DNA of 64,000 bases from the IMG/VR virus record IMGVR_UViG_2565956726_000008; one strand, 5' to 3'. Shown in pieces: positions 7,748-45,015 of the stretch (position 1 is its first letter; each line of letters starts with the position of its first letter). Origin of the DNA: a virus (lineage: Duplodnaviria > Heunggongvirae > Uroviricota > Caudoviricetes). The notes below the pieces were generated by a model that worked only from the letters and a program-made list of their open reading frames with translations, did not search any database and was not told the DNA's origin. Made by a program: the position numbers and the translations under genes.

Positions 7748-8052
7748 CGCATTTTCTCCTATGGTTAGAGTGAACGCGCGGGCGGGCATCCCATTAGCAT
7801 TAGATAGCAGTGACTGACCGCTCAACAGATCCCGCCGTTGCGTGATATTTGTTTTTCGCTTCGCAGCGACACCGGATTTTTAAAGAGCATAAGGTAAGTG
7901 CCTTTTTGTGCCTTCAGTTATCTTTTTCCTTGCGTCTTTGCAAGTATGGCCTTACCTTGTCTGCAAGTTTACAAAATGGAATTTTAAGATCAAGGCTTAA
8001 AATACACGTTTTGTGACTTGCATCAAACTTTTTGAGGTTATAGGGTAGCGAC
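7748..8052. promoter_or_regulatory. Immunity region: divergent promoter/operator interval between Cro-like and CI genes
   Basis: 305-bp intergenic; palindromic half-sites CTTGC-N6-GCAAG (7929-7944), CTTG-N3-GCAAG (7956-7967), AAGG-N6-CCTT (7891-7904). Confidence 0.5.
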
Positions 8053-8700
8053 ATGAAAACAAAATGGTATGACTTAGCAAAGCAGCTCATGCGGGCGCAG
8101 GGCATGAGTCAGGATTCACTCGCAGATCTCATGGGGATAACTAAAGGCGGCCTGTCACACTGGCTGAACGGTCGCCGCGAGCCAAATCTTGAAGATATTG
8201 CGCGGATTATGCGGGCGCTTGGTCGTCGGCAGTTCACTGTTACACATGATGGTATGGTCATTGATGATTCTGTTTCTAATACACTTCAGGCCGCACCGCC
8301 GCGTGATTTAGGTAGTTACCCGGTTATTGACTGGAAGGACACAGTAAACAATATGGATGACACAAGGCGATCAGCATTACCACACGTTACGACTAGCGTT
8401 ATTTGTTCAGATGATAGTTACTGGCTGGTTGCCAAAGGTGAATCAATGAACGCGCCGCAGGGGTTGAGCATCCCGGCGGGGACGATGATACTTGTTGACC
8501 CGCACGCGCCAGCTATTGACGGCAAACTGGTTATAGCCCAGCTTGAGGAAGGGCAGATACCGACGTTTAAACAGTTGATTATTGATGGAGGTCAAAGGCT
8601 TTTACGTTCGCTCAATCCGCTGTATCCGCCAATCCCTATGAATCCAGAATCAAAAATTATAGGCGTGGTGGTTGATGCGAAGATCGTAAACCTGCCATAA
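8053..8700 (+). CDS. CI-type repressor (XRE HTH + S24 LexA-like peptidase)
   Basis: 215 aa; N-terminal HTH (MSQDSLADLMGITKGGLSHWLNG), C-terminal S24 fold with AKGESM Ser motif and downstream Lys. Confidence 0.9.
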   Translation: MKTKWYDLAKQLMRAQGMSQDSLADLMGITKGGLSHWLNGRREPNLEDIARIMRALGRRQFTVTHDGMVIDDSVSNTLQAAPPRDLGSYPVIDWKDTVNNMDDTRRSALPHVTTSVICSDDSYWLVAKGESMNAPQGLSIPAGTMILVDPHAPAIDGKLVIAQLEEGQIPTFKQLIIDGGQRLLRSLNPLYPPIPMNPESKIIGVVVDAKIVNLP

Positions 8701-38558: not shown

Positions 38559-38879
38559 TTATGCTATTTTTTCGTAAAGCACATTCATCTGGGTGCGAAT
38601 CACTGTTAATATATTGATTGCTGCGTTCTTATTAATGCGTTTATTCGCTACTATTTTTGTTTTCCCATCAATAACAACCAGATCTGCGTGCAATACATGG
38701 TTGAAGTTGACAATGTAATAATACTGTTTATCGCCAACATGTTGAACATATGCACCATTTAGATTTCCTTTATACCCACAATCACGCTCTGCGACACCGA
38801 AGTCAAATTCGCGGTTCATCTTGCGATTATATGCTACTTGTTTATGTTCCCATTTTCTCATCCATTCATCGCGTTTCAT
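38559..38879 (-). CDS. moron: hypothetical protein (106 aa)
   Basis: Minus-strand ORF inside plus-strand tail module. Confidence 0.5.
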   Translation of the reverse strand: MKRDEWMRKWEHKQVAYNRKMNREFDFGVAERDCGYKGNLNGAYVQHVGDKQYYYIVNFNHVLHADLVVIDGKTKIVANKRINKNAAINILTVIRTQMNVLYEKIA

Positions 38880-38888
38880 GTTTCACCC

Positions 38889-39548
38889 TTAATTCCAGTT
38901 GCAAGCGTTTTTCACTTTGTCGATGTGGTTATAAAGACCATCAATGTTAAACACTGCTTTCTCAATGTCGCCAGCTTCCGGCACTGCTTCAATGATAAAT
39001 TGTTTTTCGTTAACCAGTTTTTTAATCATTGGGATGGCTTTTTTGCCGTCCCATAATCCAAGAGCTTTATAATTAGTTGACCGCCACCACTCAGTAGCTA
39101 CAGCTTTGTGATCGCCGATCCGGTAGTTAATATAAGTAGTGTCCCCAGCGTCAGTTACATGGTTTGACCATGCTACGAACATTTTTGTTTTATTACCCTG
39201 GCAAGCGATTGTTAATACAGGTTTGTTTTCATCCCGTGCTTTCAGTGTAGGGAAAGCATCAAGACTTCCGCTGAAATGTTCTGCTTTCACGAAAAGGAAC
39301 ACGTTTTTTGTGTCCTGCATATCATCTTTTCTTTCGACCACAAGCCACTGTTTACCAGCTTTTTCTTTTGCTAACTGTGCCTCATATGCGGCTTGTTTTG
39401 CTTGTTGTTCTGCAAGCCATTTAGCATTTTTCTCTGCTAATGCTTGTTGTTCTTGAGTGGTCACTATAGGCGCTTTTTCATTATCCTCATTGCAACCAAC
39501 CAGACCCAATACCGCCGCAATCATTGCCACTTTTGCTAACCGTTTCAT
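38889..39548 (-). CDS. moron: lipoprotein (219 aa)
   Basis: Signal peptide MKRLAKVAMIAAVLGLVGC with lipobox LVGC; Ala/Gln/Lys-rich coiled segment. Confidence 0.65.
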   Translation of the reverse strand: MKRLAKVAMIAAVLGLVGCNEDNEKAPIVTTQEQQALAEKNAKWLAEQQAKQAAYEAQLAKEKAGKQWLVVERKDDMQDTKNVFLFVKAEHFSGSLDAFPTLKARDENKPVLTIACQGNKTKMFVAWSNHVTDAGDTTYINYRIGDHKAVATEWWRSTNYKALGLWDGKKAIPMIKKLVNEKQFIIEAVPEAGDIEKAVFNIDGLYNHIDKVKNACNWN

Positions 39549-39675: not shown

Positions 39676-42018
39676 ATGGATACCAGTGTAGGTACAATTT
39701 ATTACGAAGTTGATGCGAAAACTAGTCAACTTCTCGTTGCACAACGACAGGCAGACCAGGCCTTTGGGCGTATAGAGCGCGGCGCAAAACAGGCTGACCG
39801 CCAGGTAAACACCCTGAAAACATCCATCAAGGCACTGACCAGGGTTATCCATTTGCTAATTGCTGCGGAGGCCGTGCGTCAATTCATGGATATGGCGGAG
39901 CAAGCAAAAATGCTTCGCGTAAAAATCAAAATGCTTACGGGCGATGCGGAGTCCGCCGGACGGGTTTTTGATGGCCTGAAAGCAATATCAAAAGAAACAG
40001 GCCAAAGCATGAAGGATACCGGGGATCTGTGGCAAGGCTTAGCTATCTCACTGAAGAACACGTCCGCCACTGAAGGGCAATTGCTTAACCTGGTAGGTAC
40101 GATTCAGAAAATGGGGGCATTAGGCGGCGCGTCAGCGGAACAGATGTCTAACTCAATGCGTCAATTCCGTCAGTCTATCGACGGCGGTGTTCTTCGTGCC
40201 GAAGAATTTAACAGCCTGCTTGAAAATACGCCGACCATCGTACAAACAATGGCCCGCCATATGGGATTATCAATGGGCCAGTTCCGCGCCGAAATGCTGG
40301 ACGGCAAGATCACGGCTGAAAGGATGGTTAACGCAATACAGGCGGCTACGCAGGAAACAAACGATAAGTTTGCTCAGTTGCCGCGCACATCCGGCATGGC
40401 TATCAATGAGCTTAAAGTAGAAATTATGGGCCTTGTTGAGCAGTTGGATGATCTTTTTGGCGTGTCAGATGGCGTTGTTTCAGCTATCGACTTGATCACG
40501 AAAGGCGTTAAAGGGCTTGGCGATGGCGCTAAATTCGCTAAAACCTGCTTCGACACACTCAAAACGGCTGGTAGCGAATTTATCGACATGTTTGATGATG
40601 TGGCTGTTAAGGCTGGAGAGGTGGCAGAGAAGATCATCGCAATGGTGACGCCAATCAAGGCGCTAATGGATGGCTATAAATGGATGAAGGAGGTAGTAGG
40701 AGAGCAAACCGACGAATATAACAGCAACTACGAGAAGAAATACGGGAAGACCGTTGGCAAGGTCATGCAACTACAGGATGATCTGACCGCAGCAATCCAG
40801 GCTACAGAAGAAGCAAGGAAAAATGAACAGAATGCTGCCAATGACGGAGCGATTACCGGATTCGACAAGCCAGTAGACAAGCCGAAAAAACAGAAAAAAG
40901 AGAAGAAATCGGAAGCTGATCGGCTTGGTGACAAAGGTATAAGCGTTTCTGATCAGTACAACAAAGACGCCGCCGCCATGCGCAAAGCGTTGGAGAACGG
41001 CAAGGCCATTGATGCTGCATTTGCCCAGGGTAAAATCACGCTCCTTGAGTACCGCGCCGCGCAAAAAGGGATCGGCAAGGAACTGAAAGAAGAATTAGCA
41101 CAAATTCCGGTAGATGAATTGCGTGATAAATGGTCACAAATAGTAAGCCCGATGGATCAGCTAAAAGGCGAAGTTGACCCCATCCAGCAGGCGCAAAATG
41201 AATGGGCCATCCGTAAGCAAATGCTTATAGACCTGGGCGCTACTGAAGCGCAACAGAAACAGGAATTGTTAGCCTATGAGCAACAGATCCGCGATCTGAA
41301 ATGGGAACAATGGCAGGCGCAAAGCGACACAAACGGCCTTATCGGTGATTGTGTTAATGGCCTTAAAGGCGGAATGAGTAATGCGCTTGTTGGCCTGTTA
41401 AACGGCACTCAATCATTGAGTGATGTTTTTGCTAACTTAGGAAGCAATATACTCGGCAATATCGGTAACAGACTCTCAGACATAGCTGCAAACTGGATAG
41501 CAGATCAGATCATGATGGAGACACAAAGCAAGGCCACGCAAACAAGTACAACAGCAAGCGCGGTAGCAGCTCAGGGAAGCATTGCTGCGGCGGCGGCCCC
41601 AGCAGCGGCGGCAACTGCGGCGTCAACTGGCGGTAGCTGGGCGGCGGCTGGTTCGGCGGCGCTCACTGCGATCATGTCGCTGGCTACGTCAATTTTCGGC
41701 GGCGGTCGCTTTAATGGTGGTAGCGTCATTGGTGGTAATATGTACCGCGTAGGGGAACACAACAGGCCGGAGCTATTCCAGACATCTAACGGCAATCAAT
41801 ATATGATCCCTGGCGAGAACGGCAGAGTTATTCCGGGCCGTGATATTGGCGGCGGTGGCGGTATTAGTATGCCTGTCAGTATCAGCATTCAGACCACGAA
41901 CGGATTCAGCGACGAAGACAGCCGCAGACTTGAATTAACAATGGAACGTGTAGCCATGAAAATGATAACAAGGGAATCTCAAAGACCAGGCGGAATGTTG
42001 CAACCTCGCCGCAAATAA
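39676..42018 (+). CDS. tail tape measure protein
   Basis: 780 aa; long alpha-helical protein with Ala/Gly-rich C-terminal region; upstream of M/L/K/I/J-like genes. Confidence 0.75.
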   Translation: MDTSVGTIYYEVDAKTSQLLVAQRQADQAFGRIERGAKQADRQVNTLKTSIKALTRVIHLLIAAEAVRQFMDMAEQAKMLRVKIKMLTGDAESAGRVFDGLKAISKETGQSMKDTGDLWQGLAISLKNTSATEGQLLNLVGTIQKMGALGGASAEQMSNSMRQFRQSIDGGVLRAEEFNSLLENTPTIVQTMARHMGLSMGQFRAEMLDGKITAERMVNAIQAATQETNDKFAQLPRTSGMAINELKVEIMGLVEQLDDLFGVSDGVVSAIDLITKGVKGLGDGAKFAKTCFDTLKTAGSEFIDMFDDVAVKAGEVAEKIIAMVTPIKALMDGYKWMKEVVGEQTDEYNSNYEKKYGKTVGKVMQLQDDLTAAIQATEEARKNEQNAANDGAITGFDKPVDKPKKQKKEKKSEADRLGDKGISVSDQYNKDAAAMRKALENGKAIDAAFAQGKITLLEYRAAQKGIGKELKEELAQIPVDELRDKWSQIVSPMDQLKGEVDPIQQAQNEWAIRKQMLIDLGATEAQQKQELLAYEQQIRDLKWEQWQAQSDTNGLIGDCVNGLKGGMSNALVGLLNGTQSLSDVFANLGSNILGNIGNRLSDIAANWIADQIMMETQSKATQTSTTASAVAAQGSIAAAAAPAAAATAASTGGSWAAAGSAALTAIMSLATSIFGGGRFNGGSVIGGNMYRVGEHNRPELFQTSNGNQYMIPGENGRVIPGRDIGGGGGISMPVSISIQTTNGFSDEDSRRLELTMERVAMKMITRESQRPGGMLQPRRK

Positions 42019-42025
42019 ACTAAAT

Positions 42026-42051
42026 CCCGGTGCAATGCCGGGGTTATTTTT
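42026..42051. terminator. bidirectional Rho-independent terminator
   Basis: cccggtgcaatgccgggg + ttattttt; same stem-loop sequence as the terminator after the capsid gene. Confidence 0.8.
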
Positions 42052-42104
42052 CGTATTTATAAACGACCATTCCGCGCGATATATCCCCTTTCGAATATCT
42101 CGAC

Positions 42105-42359
42105 TCACTTATGAGTGCCTTTCACGCCACATAACTTGTTATAGGCATGGTGCTCAACAATTAACCAAACCTTCAAATCTTCGCTAAACAGCCTCCAATC
42201 AAGATTGATATCCATTTTGTATCCGTAACCGTCGCGTAACTTTTTGGGGTAAACTTCTTTTCTCAGAAAGGCTTTAAGTAATTCCTTACCTTTCTTGATG
42301 ATCCGGTCCTGTGCGTTTTTCTGTGCTTTCAGATTTCTGTCAATCGCTACCAGTTTCAT
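42105..42359 (-). CDS. moron: RelE/YafQ-like toxin candidate (84 aa)
   Basis: By-eye resemblance of C-terminal half (DINLDWRLF...GTHK) to YafQ (EPDWILIY...TGTH); second gene of a two-gene minus-strand cassette. Confidence 0.35.
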   Translation of the reverse strand: MKLVAIDRNLKAQKNAQDRIIKKGKELLKAFLRKEVYPKKLRDGYGYKMDINLDWRLFSEDLKVWLIVEHHAYNKLCGVKGTHK

Positions 42360-42377
42360 AACTCACCCCATCATCCT

Positions 42378-42533
42378 TAGTTAAGTGCCTTCAGGAAGAA
42401 GTCCCGGTATTCATCTTCTTTCGCATTCATCATGAATTGACCGTATTTGAATGCGTCGTCGAAACCCTTAACGATTGCTATTTCCACTTGTTCGAATGCG
42501 TTATTTAGCATTACTACTACATAGCGTTTCATT
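42378..42533 (-). CDS. moron: small protein (51 aa), antitoxin candidate
   Basis: ATG with aaggagg RBS; translation MKRYVVVMLNNAFEQVEIAIVKGFDDAFKYGQFMMNAKEDEYRDFFLKALN. Confidence 0.35.
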
Positions 42534-42601
42534 TTGGGCCTCCTTCGTTGGTACTACTTTCTTCTTGCTTTCTATATACATCTTGTTGCGTGCTATGTGA
42601 A

Positions 42602-42685
42602 GCCATTTTGTAAACTAGCTATAATCATTGTGACAATGATCTTATTTTTCGCGTAGAAGCGCGTAAAGATATATACAAAATGTAA
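42602..42685. repeat. Intergenic motif pair GCCATTTTGTAAA ... ATATACAAAATGTAA
   Basis: Copies of the recurrent motif upstream of the M-like gene. Confidence 0.6.
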
Positions 42686-42699
42686 CTTGTGGGGGTTTT

Positions 42700-43053
42700 A
42701 TGCCGGAAGTGTTCAGATGGACGCCGCAAAGAAGCTACAGCGTGACCAGGAAGCCAGACGTATCTGTTGTTAAGCTGGGCGATGGTTATGAGCAAAGACA
42801 GGTAAAAGGTATCAATCCATTGCTTGATAGCTACACCCTGGTGTTTAAAGGCAGTAGCGCCGGATGTGGTGATGGTGGAAACGTAGCAATCCAGGCGGAA
42901 GCATTCTTGAGGGCGCGCGGCGCGGTCGAGGCTTTTTACTGGTCGCCGTCAATGGATAACGTGCAAAGGCTTTTTGTCTGTCGGCAATGGAGCATGACTA
43001 AAGACGGGCCTTTGTACACGCTAAACGCAACGTTTGAGCAAGTTGTTGGCTAA
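42700..43053 (+). CDS. minor tail protein, lambda M-like
   Basis: 117 aa; by-eye match to lambda gpM family. Confidence 0.7.
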   Translation: MPEVFRWTPQRSYSVTRKPDVSVVKLGDGYEQRQVKGINPLLDSYTLVFKGSSAGCGDGGNVAIQAEAFLRARGAVEAFYWSPSMDNVQRLFVCRQWSMTKDGPLYTLNATFEQVVG

Positions 43054-43250
43054 TGGGGGTTGTTATGTACGGGACTTGTGTAGTTGACAAAACTTACGCT
43101 TTTACATTGTTTGACGACTATGAGATCAACGACCTTACTGTAAAAGCTGACAACGGCGATATATGGTATCTTCACGACGTTGGTGATGGGTACGTTGGGT
43201 GTAGATCCCGGGAAGGGAAGGAGGTTTTATTTTTGGTTGATGGCGTATAA
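43053..43250 (+). CDS. small protein, paralog family copy inside tail module
   Basis: 65 aa; ADNGDIWYLHDVGDG matches DD-x-G-x-W family motif. Confidence 0.4.
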   Translation: MGVVMYGTCVVDKTYAFTLFDDYEINDLTVKADNGDIWYLHDVGDGYVGCRSREGKEVLFLVDGV

Positions 43251-43256
43251 ACACGA

Positions 43257-43285
43257 CCCCGCGCGAAGCGGGGTTATTTTTATTC
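43257..43285 (+). terminator. Rho-independent terminator
   Basis: ccccgcgcgaagcgggg + ttatttttatt. Confidence 0.75.
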
Positions 43286-43406
43286 TATTTCCATTAATGC
43301 TATATTTTCTGCTATCGTTTTCCAGTCCAGATCTACAGCATGAACGCCAAATACTATCAACCCCATTATTATTAGCGCCAAAACTTCTATTTTTATAATC
43401 AGTCAC

Positions 43407-43655
43407 CTATAAGTTATCACGCAGATAATTAACGCCCTTATCAGTGACGAATGAATGGTTAACCTGGTTTTCATCCGTCATGATGATGAATAACTTTTCA
43501 TGTAGGTATTTCGCTTTCGGGTACAGCGTTAAACAGACCTGGTACAGTATCCCGCGCTCAATCAGCAAATCAATAAATTCGTGTTCATGATAACCGATGA
43601 GGCGGGCGGCCTGTTTCAACGTGTACACATAATCACCGTGATTGCGCCGCCCCAT
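43407..43655 (-). CDS. moron: hypothetical protein, possibly DNA-binding (82 aa)
   Basis: Minus-strand ORF; third gene of three-gene cassette. Confidence 0.45.
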   Translation of the reverse strand: MGRRNHGDYVYTLKQAARLIGYHEHEFIDLLIERGILYQVCLTLYPKAKYLHEKLFIIMTDENQVNHSFVTDKGVNYLRDNL

Positions 43656-43664
43656 GTTGCCGCC

Positions 43665-44012
43665 TTATTTATCGAATGCTGAAAGGTTATCGATACAGAA
43701 ATCTTTCGCCGCTTTTTCGTATTCGCGTTTTGCTTCTGGATCGTCAGCCGGGAAACCTTTTGCGTGTATTTCACCAGGGCAAGACTGGTCCATAGAATCT
43801 GCATAATAAGCAGTGAAGCTACCATTAATATCTTTCGGGTTCATATCTTCCACCTCATCAACTATCTGTACCGGATTAGCAGCATATTTCACTGGATGGC
43901 CTAAACTACATTCAAGAATCCTGCCTTCTTCCAGGGCTACTTCTTCGCTATCAAATAATCCGAAACACTCCTTGCTACCACTTAACCACACATCAAGACT
44001 GTATTTTTTCAT
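43665..44012 (-). CDS. moron: hypothetical acidic protein (115 aa)
   Basis: ATG at 44012 with gagg RBS; overlaps upstream gene by 20 nt. Confidence 0.45.
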   Translation of the reverse strand: MKKYSLDVWLSGSKECFGLFDSEEVALEEGRILECSLGHPVKYAANPVQIVDEVEDMNPKDINGSFTAYYADSMDQSCPGEIHAKGFPADDPEAKREYEKAAKDFCIDNLSAFDK

Positions 44013-44181
44013 TTTTGTTAGCCTCATATTTGACAGGTTCGATCTGGTATCCCAAAAGGCGGTCATCCTCAGCAAGTAAAAGCGCGTCAACCAATGCTTC
44101 ACCCTCGTCGTCATACAGGGCGATAACCTTTTCCCTACCGTCTGTCATGAATACCGTCAACTTCCATAGCTTTTCAGTCAT
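43993..44181 (-). CDS. moron: hypothetical small protein (62 aa)
   Basis: ATG at 44181 with strong ggagg RBS. Confidence 0.45.
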   Translation of the reverse strand: MTEKLWKLTVFMTDGREKVIALYDDEGEALVDALLLAEDDRLLGYQIEPVKYEANKNEKIQS

Positions 44182-44195
44182 AACGCACCTCCGCG

Positions 44196-44292
44196 CCATT
44201 TTGTTAACTATGCTTCCGTTTGAGTAAAATATACATATTGTAAAAACCGCGATCAATCCATTTTGGTATGATTTAGCGTGACGCAGATCACA
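44196..44292. repeat. Intergenic motif copies GCCATTTTGTTAAC, ATCCATTTTGG and CGTGACGCAGATCACA
   Basis: Upstream of L-like gene start. Confidence 0.6.
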
Positions 44293-44310
44293 GAATGACA
44301 AGGTGAGAAA

Positions 44311-45015
44311 ATGCGCAATATTCCGAGAGAAATGATTATTGATTCCGTCGATGCCGGAGTCGGCGCGGTAATTGACTTGTTTGAATTAGACCTCACGCCC
44401 CTGGGTGGCGAGGTTATCCGCTTCCATTCCGGCGTGAATGGCTATTACGGCCCGGTTATCTGGAAGGGGGTGGCTTACAACAGCTACCCTATCGAGGCCA
44501 CTGGCTTCGAAATGAAAAACGAGGGTGTCTATTCACGCCCGCAAATGGTTGTAGCCAACATTGGCGGCCTAATCACCGGGATGAATAACGATTTCAACGA
44601 CCTGCGAGGAATGAAAGTTACACGCCGCCAGGTGGAAGTAAAATACCTGGACGCCATCAACTTCCCCAACGGCAACCCGGATGCAGATCCGTCTATCGAG
44701 GCGGTGTCTTTTTACGTCGTTGAGGCGATGAGCGAAGAAACAGCCGACCAGGTGCAATATGAGCTGTCAACGCCAATTGATGCTGACAAGGCGGTTATCC
44801 CAGGGCGCACAATCCTTGCTGACGTTTGCCAATGGCAATATCGCGGCGACGGTTGCGGATACAGTGGCGGCCCTGTAGCTACTGATAAAGACGAATCGAC
44901 CAGCGATCCAAAGCTGGATAAATGCAGCCACCGCCTGAGCGGTTGCCGTTTACGTTTCCCGCGCCCGAATCCGTTACCAATTTCATGTTTCCCAGGATCG
45001 AGCAAGGTGGGTTGA
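44311..45015 (+). CDS. minor tail protein, lambda L-like
   Basis: 234 aa; by-eye match to lambda gpL including C-terminal Cys cluster CQWQYRGDGCGYSG ... CSHRLSGC. Confidence 0.75.
   Translation: MRNIPREMIIDSVDAGVGAVIDLFELDLTPLGGEVIRFHSGVNGYYGPVIWKGVAYNSYPIEATGFEMKNEGVYSRPQMVVANIGGLITGMNNDFNDLRGMKVTRRQVEVKYLDAINFPNGNPDADPSIEAVSFYVVEAMSEETADQVQYELSTPIDADKAVIPGRTILADVCQWQYRGDGCGYSGGPVATDKDESTSDPKLDKCSHRLSGCRLRFPRPNPLPISCFPGSSKVG

Follow-up and report, generated by a model that had tools for sequence, protein, structure and literature searches.

A predicted RelE/ParE-fold protein and its dispensable upstream companion in the tail region of mEp021/mEpimmI-group prophages

The window, as the whole analysed stretch of 64,000 nucleotides (nt) from IMG/VR virus record IMGVR_UViG_2565956726_000008 will be called here, holds a ~50-kb Escherichia coli prophage of the mEp021/mEpimmI phage group, whose members are Nus-dependent non-lambdoid phages (PMC11893012). 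Between the tape-measure gene and the M-like minor tail gene of this prophage lies a cassette of two small minus-strand open reading frames (ORFs), the first encoding a protein of 51 amino acids (aa) and the second a protein of 84 aa (Table 1). An initial annotation had picked out both ORFs and had read them as a candidate RelE/YafQ-type toxin-antitoxin moron. The 84-aa protein does belong to a family of predicted RelE-type fold, but it is a fixed component of the phage group that is kept where the 51-aa gene is absent, and it is tentatively interpreted below as a solitary effector.

The cassette region is 99.9% identical to prophages of E. coli M1/5, FAH, and MS 21-1, and 82-84% identical to phages mEp021, mEp554, mEp010, and others. 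The 51-aa gene comes first and the 84-aa gene second, with 17 nt between the stop of the one and the start of the other. Strong purifying selection, with ratios of non-synonymous to synonymous substitution rates (dN/dS) of 0.059 for the 51-aa gene (25 nucleotide alleles) and 0.064 for the 84-aa gene (31 nucleotide alleles), indicates that both are truly protein-coding. Their products, judged from sequence, are slightly acidic in the case of the 51-aa protein and strongly basic, with a net charge of about +10, in the case of the 84-aa protein. Both ribosome-binding sites had been called strong; this holds for the Shine-Dalgarno sequence AAGGAGG of the 51-aa gene, whereas the Shine-Dalgarno-like GGGGTGAG of the 84-aa gene is weaker. 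Lineages that lack the 51-aa gene carry the homologous GGGGGATG equally far ahead of the 84-aa start codon.

Family, predicted fold, and invariant residues of the 84-aa protein

The 84-aa protein is a direct sequence member of Pfam family PF24732, 'ParE-like toxin domain' (E-value 9e-12; 45.3 bits against a gathering cut-off of 24.4), which it matches over profile positions 2-67 of 67 and which is its sole Pfam match at E-value <=1. It also matches PHROG 1525, the function entry of which reads 'unknown'. The RefSeq pipeline PGAP names the identical protein, WP_000779577.1, 'ParE family toxin-like protein', and the genomes that carry this annotation include that of E. coli M1/5. Pfam and RefSeq already contain the fold assignment, and what is reported here mostly rediscovers the automatic annotation of an uncharacterised family. 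The name 'ParE-like' is a label for a fold and does not establish function. Among other resources, NCBIfam contained no model that matched the 84-aa protein, the PADLOC defence-protein models matched neither protein of the cassette at E-value <=10, and phmmer and profile hmmsearch of the 84-aa protein against PDB sequences returned nothing relevant. Alignment by hhalign to approximate target sequences for YoeB, RelE, and YafQ gave non-significant probabilities of <1%.

A first AlphaFold model, built on an alignment of 27 close relatives (>=73% identity), reached a predicted local distance difference test score (pLDDT) of 55 and was unusable. A second, built on an alignment of 33 diverse sequences (A3), reached a pLDDT of 86.7 and a predicted template modelling score of 0.74, with all five models between 81 and 87, and returned a RelE/ParE-type fold, as had been anticipated when such a prediction was first proposed. 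The topology is beta(3-7)-beta(10-13)-alpha(18-32)-beta(47-50)-beta(55-59)-beta(65-69)-alpha(70-77). The top Foldseek match of this model is YoeB of Staphylococcus aureus, with a probability of 0.97 and 24-26% identity over 78 columns, although the E-value is only 0.07 and the template modelling (TM) score ~0.5. Against predicted viral structures, the best matches are 'ParE-like toxin domain' proteins of the virulent jumbo phages fHe-Yen9-04 and RaK2 (TM 0.7-0.8). Because the AlphaFold model and Foldseek agree on a RelE-type fold, the earlier guess at the fold was right. The 84-aa protein is predicted, with moderate structural significance, to adopt the RelE-type alpha/beta fold, with RNase-type members as its nearer neighbours.

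The residues on which that guess had been based fared less well. Likeness to YafQ and RelE had been noted by eye in the C-terminal region, but it extends no further than the fold: D50, N52, D54, W55, and the terminal GVKGTHK are variable or lacking in remote relatives within the family, the tail has a pLDDT <50 in the model, and the alignment probability with YafQ is 0.6%. Five other positions, [K/R]40, R56, H70, Y73, and N74, are invariant in the 33 diverse family members. In the model, [K/R]40 precedes the third beta strand, R56 lies on the central strand, and H70, Y73, and N74 stand at the start of the C-terminal helix. The active sites of RelE, YoeB, and HigB lie in regions that match these three locations, and the five residues are proposed to form an active or binding site.

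Comparison with characterised toxins places the 84-aa protein at some distance from each of them. YoeB, the ribosome-dependent mRNA interferase of the YefM-YoeB system, offers the closest fold, yet there is no sequence-level match, and the model has one long helix and an N-terminal beta-hairpin where YoeB has a two-helix hairpin. ParE2, of the PaaA2-ParE2 system that occurs with PaaR2 in an E. coli O157:H7 prophage, ranks below the RNase-type toxins as a fold match, and PF24732 is a family separate from that of the classical ParE_toxin proteins. Public assemblies also hold several truncated versions of the 84-aa protein (40-61 aa; hits P0033-P0040; for example ...GYGYKRISILIGGCLAKI), some of them visibly frameshifted, which may represent either genuine inactivated alleles or faulty assembly.

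Linkage, absence of the 51-aa gene in some records, and distant relatives

Among E. coli genomes, 35 have the adjacent tail gene, and exactly these 35 have the 84-aa gene, as do 7/7 sequenced phage isolates of the group. It is a fixed core gene of the phage group, not a sporadic insertion. The description of the cassette as a moron is only partly apt. Like lambda-type morons, the cassette lies on the opposite strand within the late tail operon, with a promoter-like element and a terminator, and variable cargo occurs downstream in relatives; unlike them, the 84-aa gene is not itself variable cargo, since every group member examined has it. The distance from the tape-measure stop to the 84-aa stop ranges from 87 to 1477 nt across relatives, reflecting this variable extra cargo downstream of the 84-aa gene. 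IMG/VR record 2563366998_000011 (L027) has both genes identical to those of the window and ~710 nt extra between the two stops. Another locus (L047) has ~490 nt of extra DNA on the other side, between the cassette and the M-like gene.

The two genes are adjacent in 34 of the 35 E. coli genomes and in 37 of 39 IMG/VR loci. The 51-aa gene is, however, cleanly absent from three records, namely E. coli UMNK88 (L019) and two distinct full-length phage contigs of 53 kb (L033) and 57 kb (L036). In all three, the 84-aa gene directly follows the cassette leader and has its own ribosome-binding site, and the encoded protein is intact with every invariant residue kept. The UMNK88 genome contains no second copy of the 51-aa gene. 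The 84-aa alleles of L033 and L036 differ by eight synonymous and two non-synonymous changes, which implies that the gene stayed under selection without its supposed antidote. In a fourth case, strain MFDS1019527 (L018), a 1-nt deletion, possibly a sequencing error, shifts the frame of the 51-aa gene at codon 5, and the 84-aa gene is intact. The 51-aa gene is therefore dispensable, and it is not an antitoxin that is always co-inherited.

Nor do the two proteins co-evolve. Their pairwise identities correlate at r = 0.30 only, and the 51-aa protein is the more conserved of the two. The exact 51-aa allele of the window stands beside seven different 84-aa alleles, down to 60% identity; in MagusPhagus, the 51-aa protein is 100% identical to that of the window and the 84-aa protein 67%. 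The 51-aa protein has no match in Pfam, NCBIfam, PADLOC, or PDB, its sole match being phrog_29810 (function entry 'unknown'), and the Pfam and NCBIfam searches detected no ribbon-helix-helix (RHH) or ParD domain in it. No relatives were found outside the mEp021/mEpimmI group. Paralogy with the small 62-aa and 115-aa head genes of the neighbouring minus-strand cassette, or with mEp021_74, was considered and rejected (BLASTP E-values of 2.9-7.9). An Rfam search of positions 41500-44500 gave a sub-threshold chance match only, and hence no candidate for an RNA antitoxin. Most likely, the 51-aa protein is a lineage-restricted, conserved, dispensable companion, and a modulator at most.

The familiar partners of RelE-fold toxins are likewise missing from the cassette. 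There is no YefM/Phd-type antitoxin as in YefM-YoeB, no RHH partner such as RelB or DinJ and no HigA as in RelBE, DinJ-YafQ, and HigB systems, and no RHH-type ParD as with classical ParE. Compared with PaaA2-ParE2, the cassette has no PaaR2-like regulator gene, and its 51-aa protein is dissimilar to any solved chain and dispensable in nature.

At the sequence level, PF24732 is a sparse family. An exhaustive hidden Markov model search of 1.84 billion representative proteins returned only nine hits at E-value <=1e-3; more came with a mixed profile. Members from virulent Sortsnevirus phages overlap an unrelated 115-125-aa gene and lie shortly ahead of the genes for holin and lysin. Members are also carried by the jumbo phages RaK2 and fHe-Yen9-04, and others occur in long same-strand arrays of small early phage genes, one of them beside a T7 gp0.4-like gene, or in prophage early operons downstream of a CI-type repressor. 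In integrative and conjugative elements (ICEs) of the ICEclc/PFGI type, members directly follow and overlap a DUF2857 gene; Pfam finds DUF2857 in BisC of ICEclc, a subunit of the BisDC activator of transfer competence (PMC7423338). A conserved upstream partner across distant members was sought and rejected, the upstream neighbours compared from phages and prophages being dissimilar to each other and to the 51-aa protein. A Pfam scan of these neighbours found no domains, with the exception of an XRE-type helix-turn-helix (XRE-HTH) in Aeromonas. Taken across the family, these settings resemble those of a small effector in early or regulatory operons of mobile elements, not those of a self-contained two-gene addiction module. 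A literature search found no paper on the PF24732 family, and a text search of the mEpimmI paper (PMC11893012) found no mention of gp67/gp68, ParE, or moron.

In one set of ICE loci (L007-L010), the member is a 94-aa protein in a regulatory operon that reads DnaB, a 549-aa protein, DUF2857, ParE_like, a 431-aa protein, and AcaB; its E. coli version is present on 131 contigs. In another (L060, L062, L063, L065, and L066), a member of 82-112 aa follows a protein of ~200-220 aa of similar sequence. The hosts across both sets are E. coli, Xenorhabdus, Proteus, and Providencia.

Transcription signals, recurrent motifs, and neighbouring cassettes

Table 1. Features in and around the minus-strand cassette (positions in the window)
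Feature	Position	Strand	Basis or match
Minus-strand cassette upstream of tape-measure gene	38559-39548	-	
Tape-measure gene	39676-42018	+	
Bidirectional intrinsic-terminator-like hairpin, between tape-measure stop and 84-aa stop	42023..42055	both	Scan: 42023-42045(+), 42042-42026(-)
Cassette under study	42105-42532	-	
84-aa protein gene (basic; predicted minimal RelE/ParE fold)	42105..42359	-	ORF; Pfam PF24732 ParE_like; RefSeq WP_000779577.1
Shine-Dalgarno-like GGGGTGAG of 84-aa gene	42362..42369	-	Sequence reading
51-aa companion gene; candidate modulator/antitoxin	42377..42532	-	ORF; phrog_29810; RefSeq WP_001329613.1
Shine-Dalgarno AAGGAGG of 51-aa gene, 6 nt ahead of ATG	42539-42545	-	Sequence reading
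Putative sigma-70-type promoter: -35 TTCACA (42596-42601), 17-nt spacer, -10 TATATA (42573-42578)	42573..42601	-	Comparative conservation
Inverted CATTTTGTA pair in spacer before M-like gene	42604-42612 / 42674-42682	+ / -	Motif count
Perfect TATAAT ahead of M-like gene	42620-42625	+	
Perfect 13-nt palindrome CATTGTGACAATG	42628-42640		
Small hairpin CGCG-N6-CGCG, between inverted CATTTTGTA copies	~42647-42660		Conserved in alignment A5
M-like minor tail gene	42700-43053	+	Pfam Phage_min_tail
65-aa ORF directly 3' of M-like gene	43053-43250	+	phrog_3249 (function entry 'unknown')
Terminator-like hairpin at tail-operon junction	43255-43275	both	
Minus-strand cassette downstream of M-like gene	43407-44301	-	

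A scan for generic sigma-70 consensus sequences called no promoter for the cassette. Comparison of relatives nevertheless reveals an element, TTCAC[AT]-N17-TATA[TC]A, that faces the cassette. Of 37 related loci, 36 retain it, with constant spacing and 20 versions of the spacer; the scan missed it because its -10 hexamer ends in A. Hexamers and spacing that stay fixed while the spacer varies are what a working promoter would show, and TTCACA-N17-TATATA is the putative promoter of the cassette. If it fires in lysogens, then the existence of lineages that lack the 51-aa gene means that natural amounts of the 84-aa protein are not lethal. At the other end of the cassette, the bidirectional terminator that had been described is borne out, a hairpin being called on both strands.

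The recurrent motif pair noted in the spacer before the M-like gene also proved real. The window has 15 copies of the 9-mer CATTTTGTA, a count reached in 0/100 shuffles, where 1.2 are expected. The sites span positions 3962-42682, for example at 7970, 8813, 16281/16347, 22959, 39598/39625, and 42604/42674; the minus-strand copy of the pair listed in Table 1 is the last, and the following 21 kb, host genes past ~54 kb included, contain none. A CI-type repressor gene (8053-8700) is flanked by two copies, and others form inverted pairs in spacers adjoining minus-strand cassettes. CATTTTGTA may be an operator, or some other site to which a phage regulator binds; no operator sequence is defined in the mEpimmI paper (PMC11893012).

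No conserved palindromic operator was found for the cassette. The sole palindrome in the promoter region, CATTGTGACAATG, which lies just downstream of a perfect TATAAT, is allele-specific, differing in UMNK88, MFDS1019527, and mEp021, whereas the TATAAT and the CGCG-N6-CGCG hairpin are conserved.

The tail operon is broken three times by opposite-strand cassettes. The one before the tape-measure gene encodes a VasI/TagO-like 219-aa lipoprotein and a 106-aa protein, and the one beyond the M-like gene encodes an 82-aa protein with a KilAC domain, a 115/149-aa protein, and a 62-aa protein. A CCATTTTG-type motif lies in the spacer that separates each cassette from the tail gene after it (tape measure, M-like, and L, respectively), and hairpins resembling terminators on both strands stand at the tail-operon junctions of two of the cassettes. 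Both mEp021 and MagusPhagus conserve the 65-aa ORF that directly follows the M-like gene in the same orientation.

Interpretation of the cassette

The explanation that best accommodates these results, although we give it slightly less than an even chance, is that the 84-aa protein, fixed in the phage group, works alone as a RelE/YoeB-like effector directed at RNA or the ribosome, and that the 51-aa protein is a companion it can do without. The cassette, fixed in the mEp021/mEpimmI tail region, would be an opposite-strand unit with transcription of its own, and the 84-aa protein its constant part. This protein would have an mRNA-interferase-type activity in phage-host conflict, its toxicity would be low or conditional at natural expression levels, and it would not be half of an obligate toxin-antitoxin pair. 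We infer an activity of the RNase rather than the gyrase type, and likewise the biological role. Several points weigh against this interpretation. The 51-aa gene is found in ~93% of loci, immediately upstream and under strong purifying selection, all of which fits an antitoxin, and one Aeromonas sub-branch of the family has the XRE-HTH gene directly upstream in a toxin-antitoxin-like layout. The 84-aa gene could be silent in lysogens and yet encode a strong toxin. The 84-aa protein has no sequence-level link, even by profile, to any solved or characterised toxin. Finally, its candidate active site was placed by conservation and secondary-structure position, not by residue-by-residue superposition of coordinates, so that its equivalence to toxin active sites is conjectural.

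We regard it as unlikely, though not strikingly so, that the cassette is the genuine type II toxin-antitoxin pair of the initial annotation, in which the 51-aa protein neutralises the 84-aa toxin and lineages without it are spared by a promoter that is weak or repressed in lysogens, or by some other compensation. The canonical order of a small gene and then a toxin-fold gene, closely spaced in one transcription unit, speaks for such a pair, as do the linkage of the two genes in nearly all genomes and loci, the opposite charges of their products, and the purifying selection on both. The lack of a DNA-binding domain in the 51-aa protein is tolerable in this respect, for small antitoxins without one exist, PaaA2 being an example. 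While the predicted toxin fold and the adjacent upstream small gene stand, the remainder of the proposal does not sit easily with the data. Since related phages keep the 84-aa gene intact and selected without the 51-aa gene, with no second copy in UMNK88, the two are probably not a classic pair, and the frameshift in MFDS1019527 points the same way. Co-variation is lacking, and conservation is higher in the putative antitoxin than in the toxin, contrary to what is usual. The 51-aa protein has no antitoxin domain, the promoter region has no conserved palindromic operator, and distant family members have no equivalent partner.

A little less likely still, in our estimation, is a non-toxic re-use of the fold, by which the 84-aa protein would be a small basic nucleic-acid-binding or regulatory protein that modulates, for example, phage or ICE gene expression. 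Its status as a fixed core gene rather than sporadic cargo, its toleration without a partner in lysogens, its high net charge, and the place of the ICE member within a regulatory operon, where it immediately follows and overlaps the BisC (DUF2857) gene, are all compatible with this. However, the invariant cluster of His, Tyr, Asn, and Arg looks catalytic and not purely structural, the early-region location in virulent phages suits a host-directed effector, and no DNA-binding motif was detected. That the protein is a ParE-type gyrase poison, with DNA gyrase and not translation as its target, is what its public name suggests; given the better fold matches to RNase-type toxins than to ParE2, this is very unlikely. 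An extension of the effector reading to the whole family is itself doubtful. It holds that PF24732 proteins are antitoxin-free descendants of RelE/YoeB-type toxins that serve phages and ICEs as stand-alone host-directed effectors, and that the 51-aa protein has been recruited recently, as an optional modulator. Such an effector could, for example, shut off or reprogram translation in lytically growing phages or while an element transfers.

Because cassettes occur in nature both with the 51-aa gene and without it, a genetic experiment is in effect ready-made, and the toxin-antitoxin question is directly testable. If the solitary-effector interpretation is true, then a toxin-fold annotation beside a small upstream ORF is not enough to diagnose a toxin-antitoxin system. 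The family-wide extension, if true, would point either to a toxin fold domesticated as a core gene of mobile elements or to a toxin-antitoxin pair caught in the course of forming. PF24732 ranges over coliphages, jumbo phages, T7-like early regions, and the regulatory operons of ICEs, and, should the 84-aa protein prove to be an active RelE/YoeB-like nuclease borne by phages with no antitoxin, a widespread small effector would join the tools by which phages take over, and come into conflict with, their hosts.
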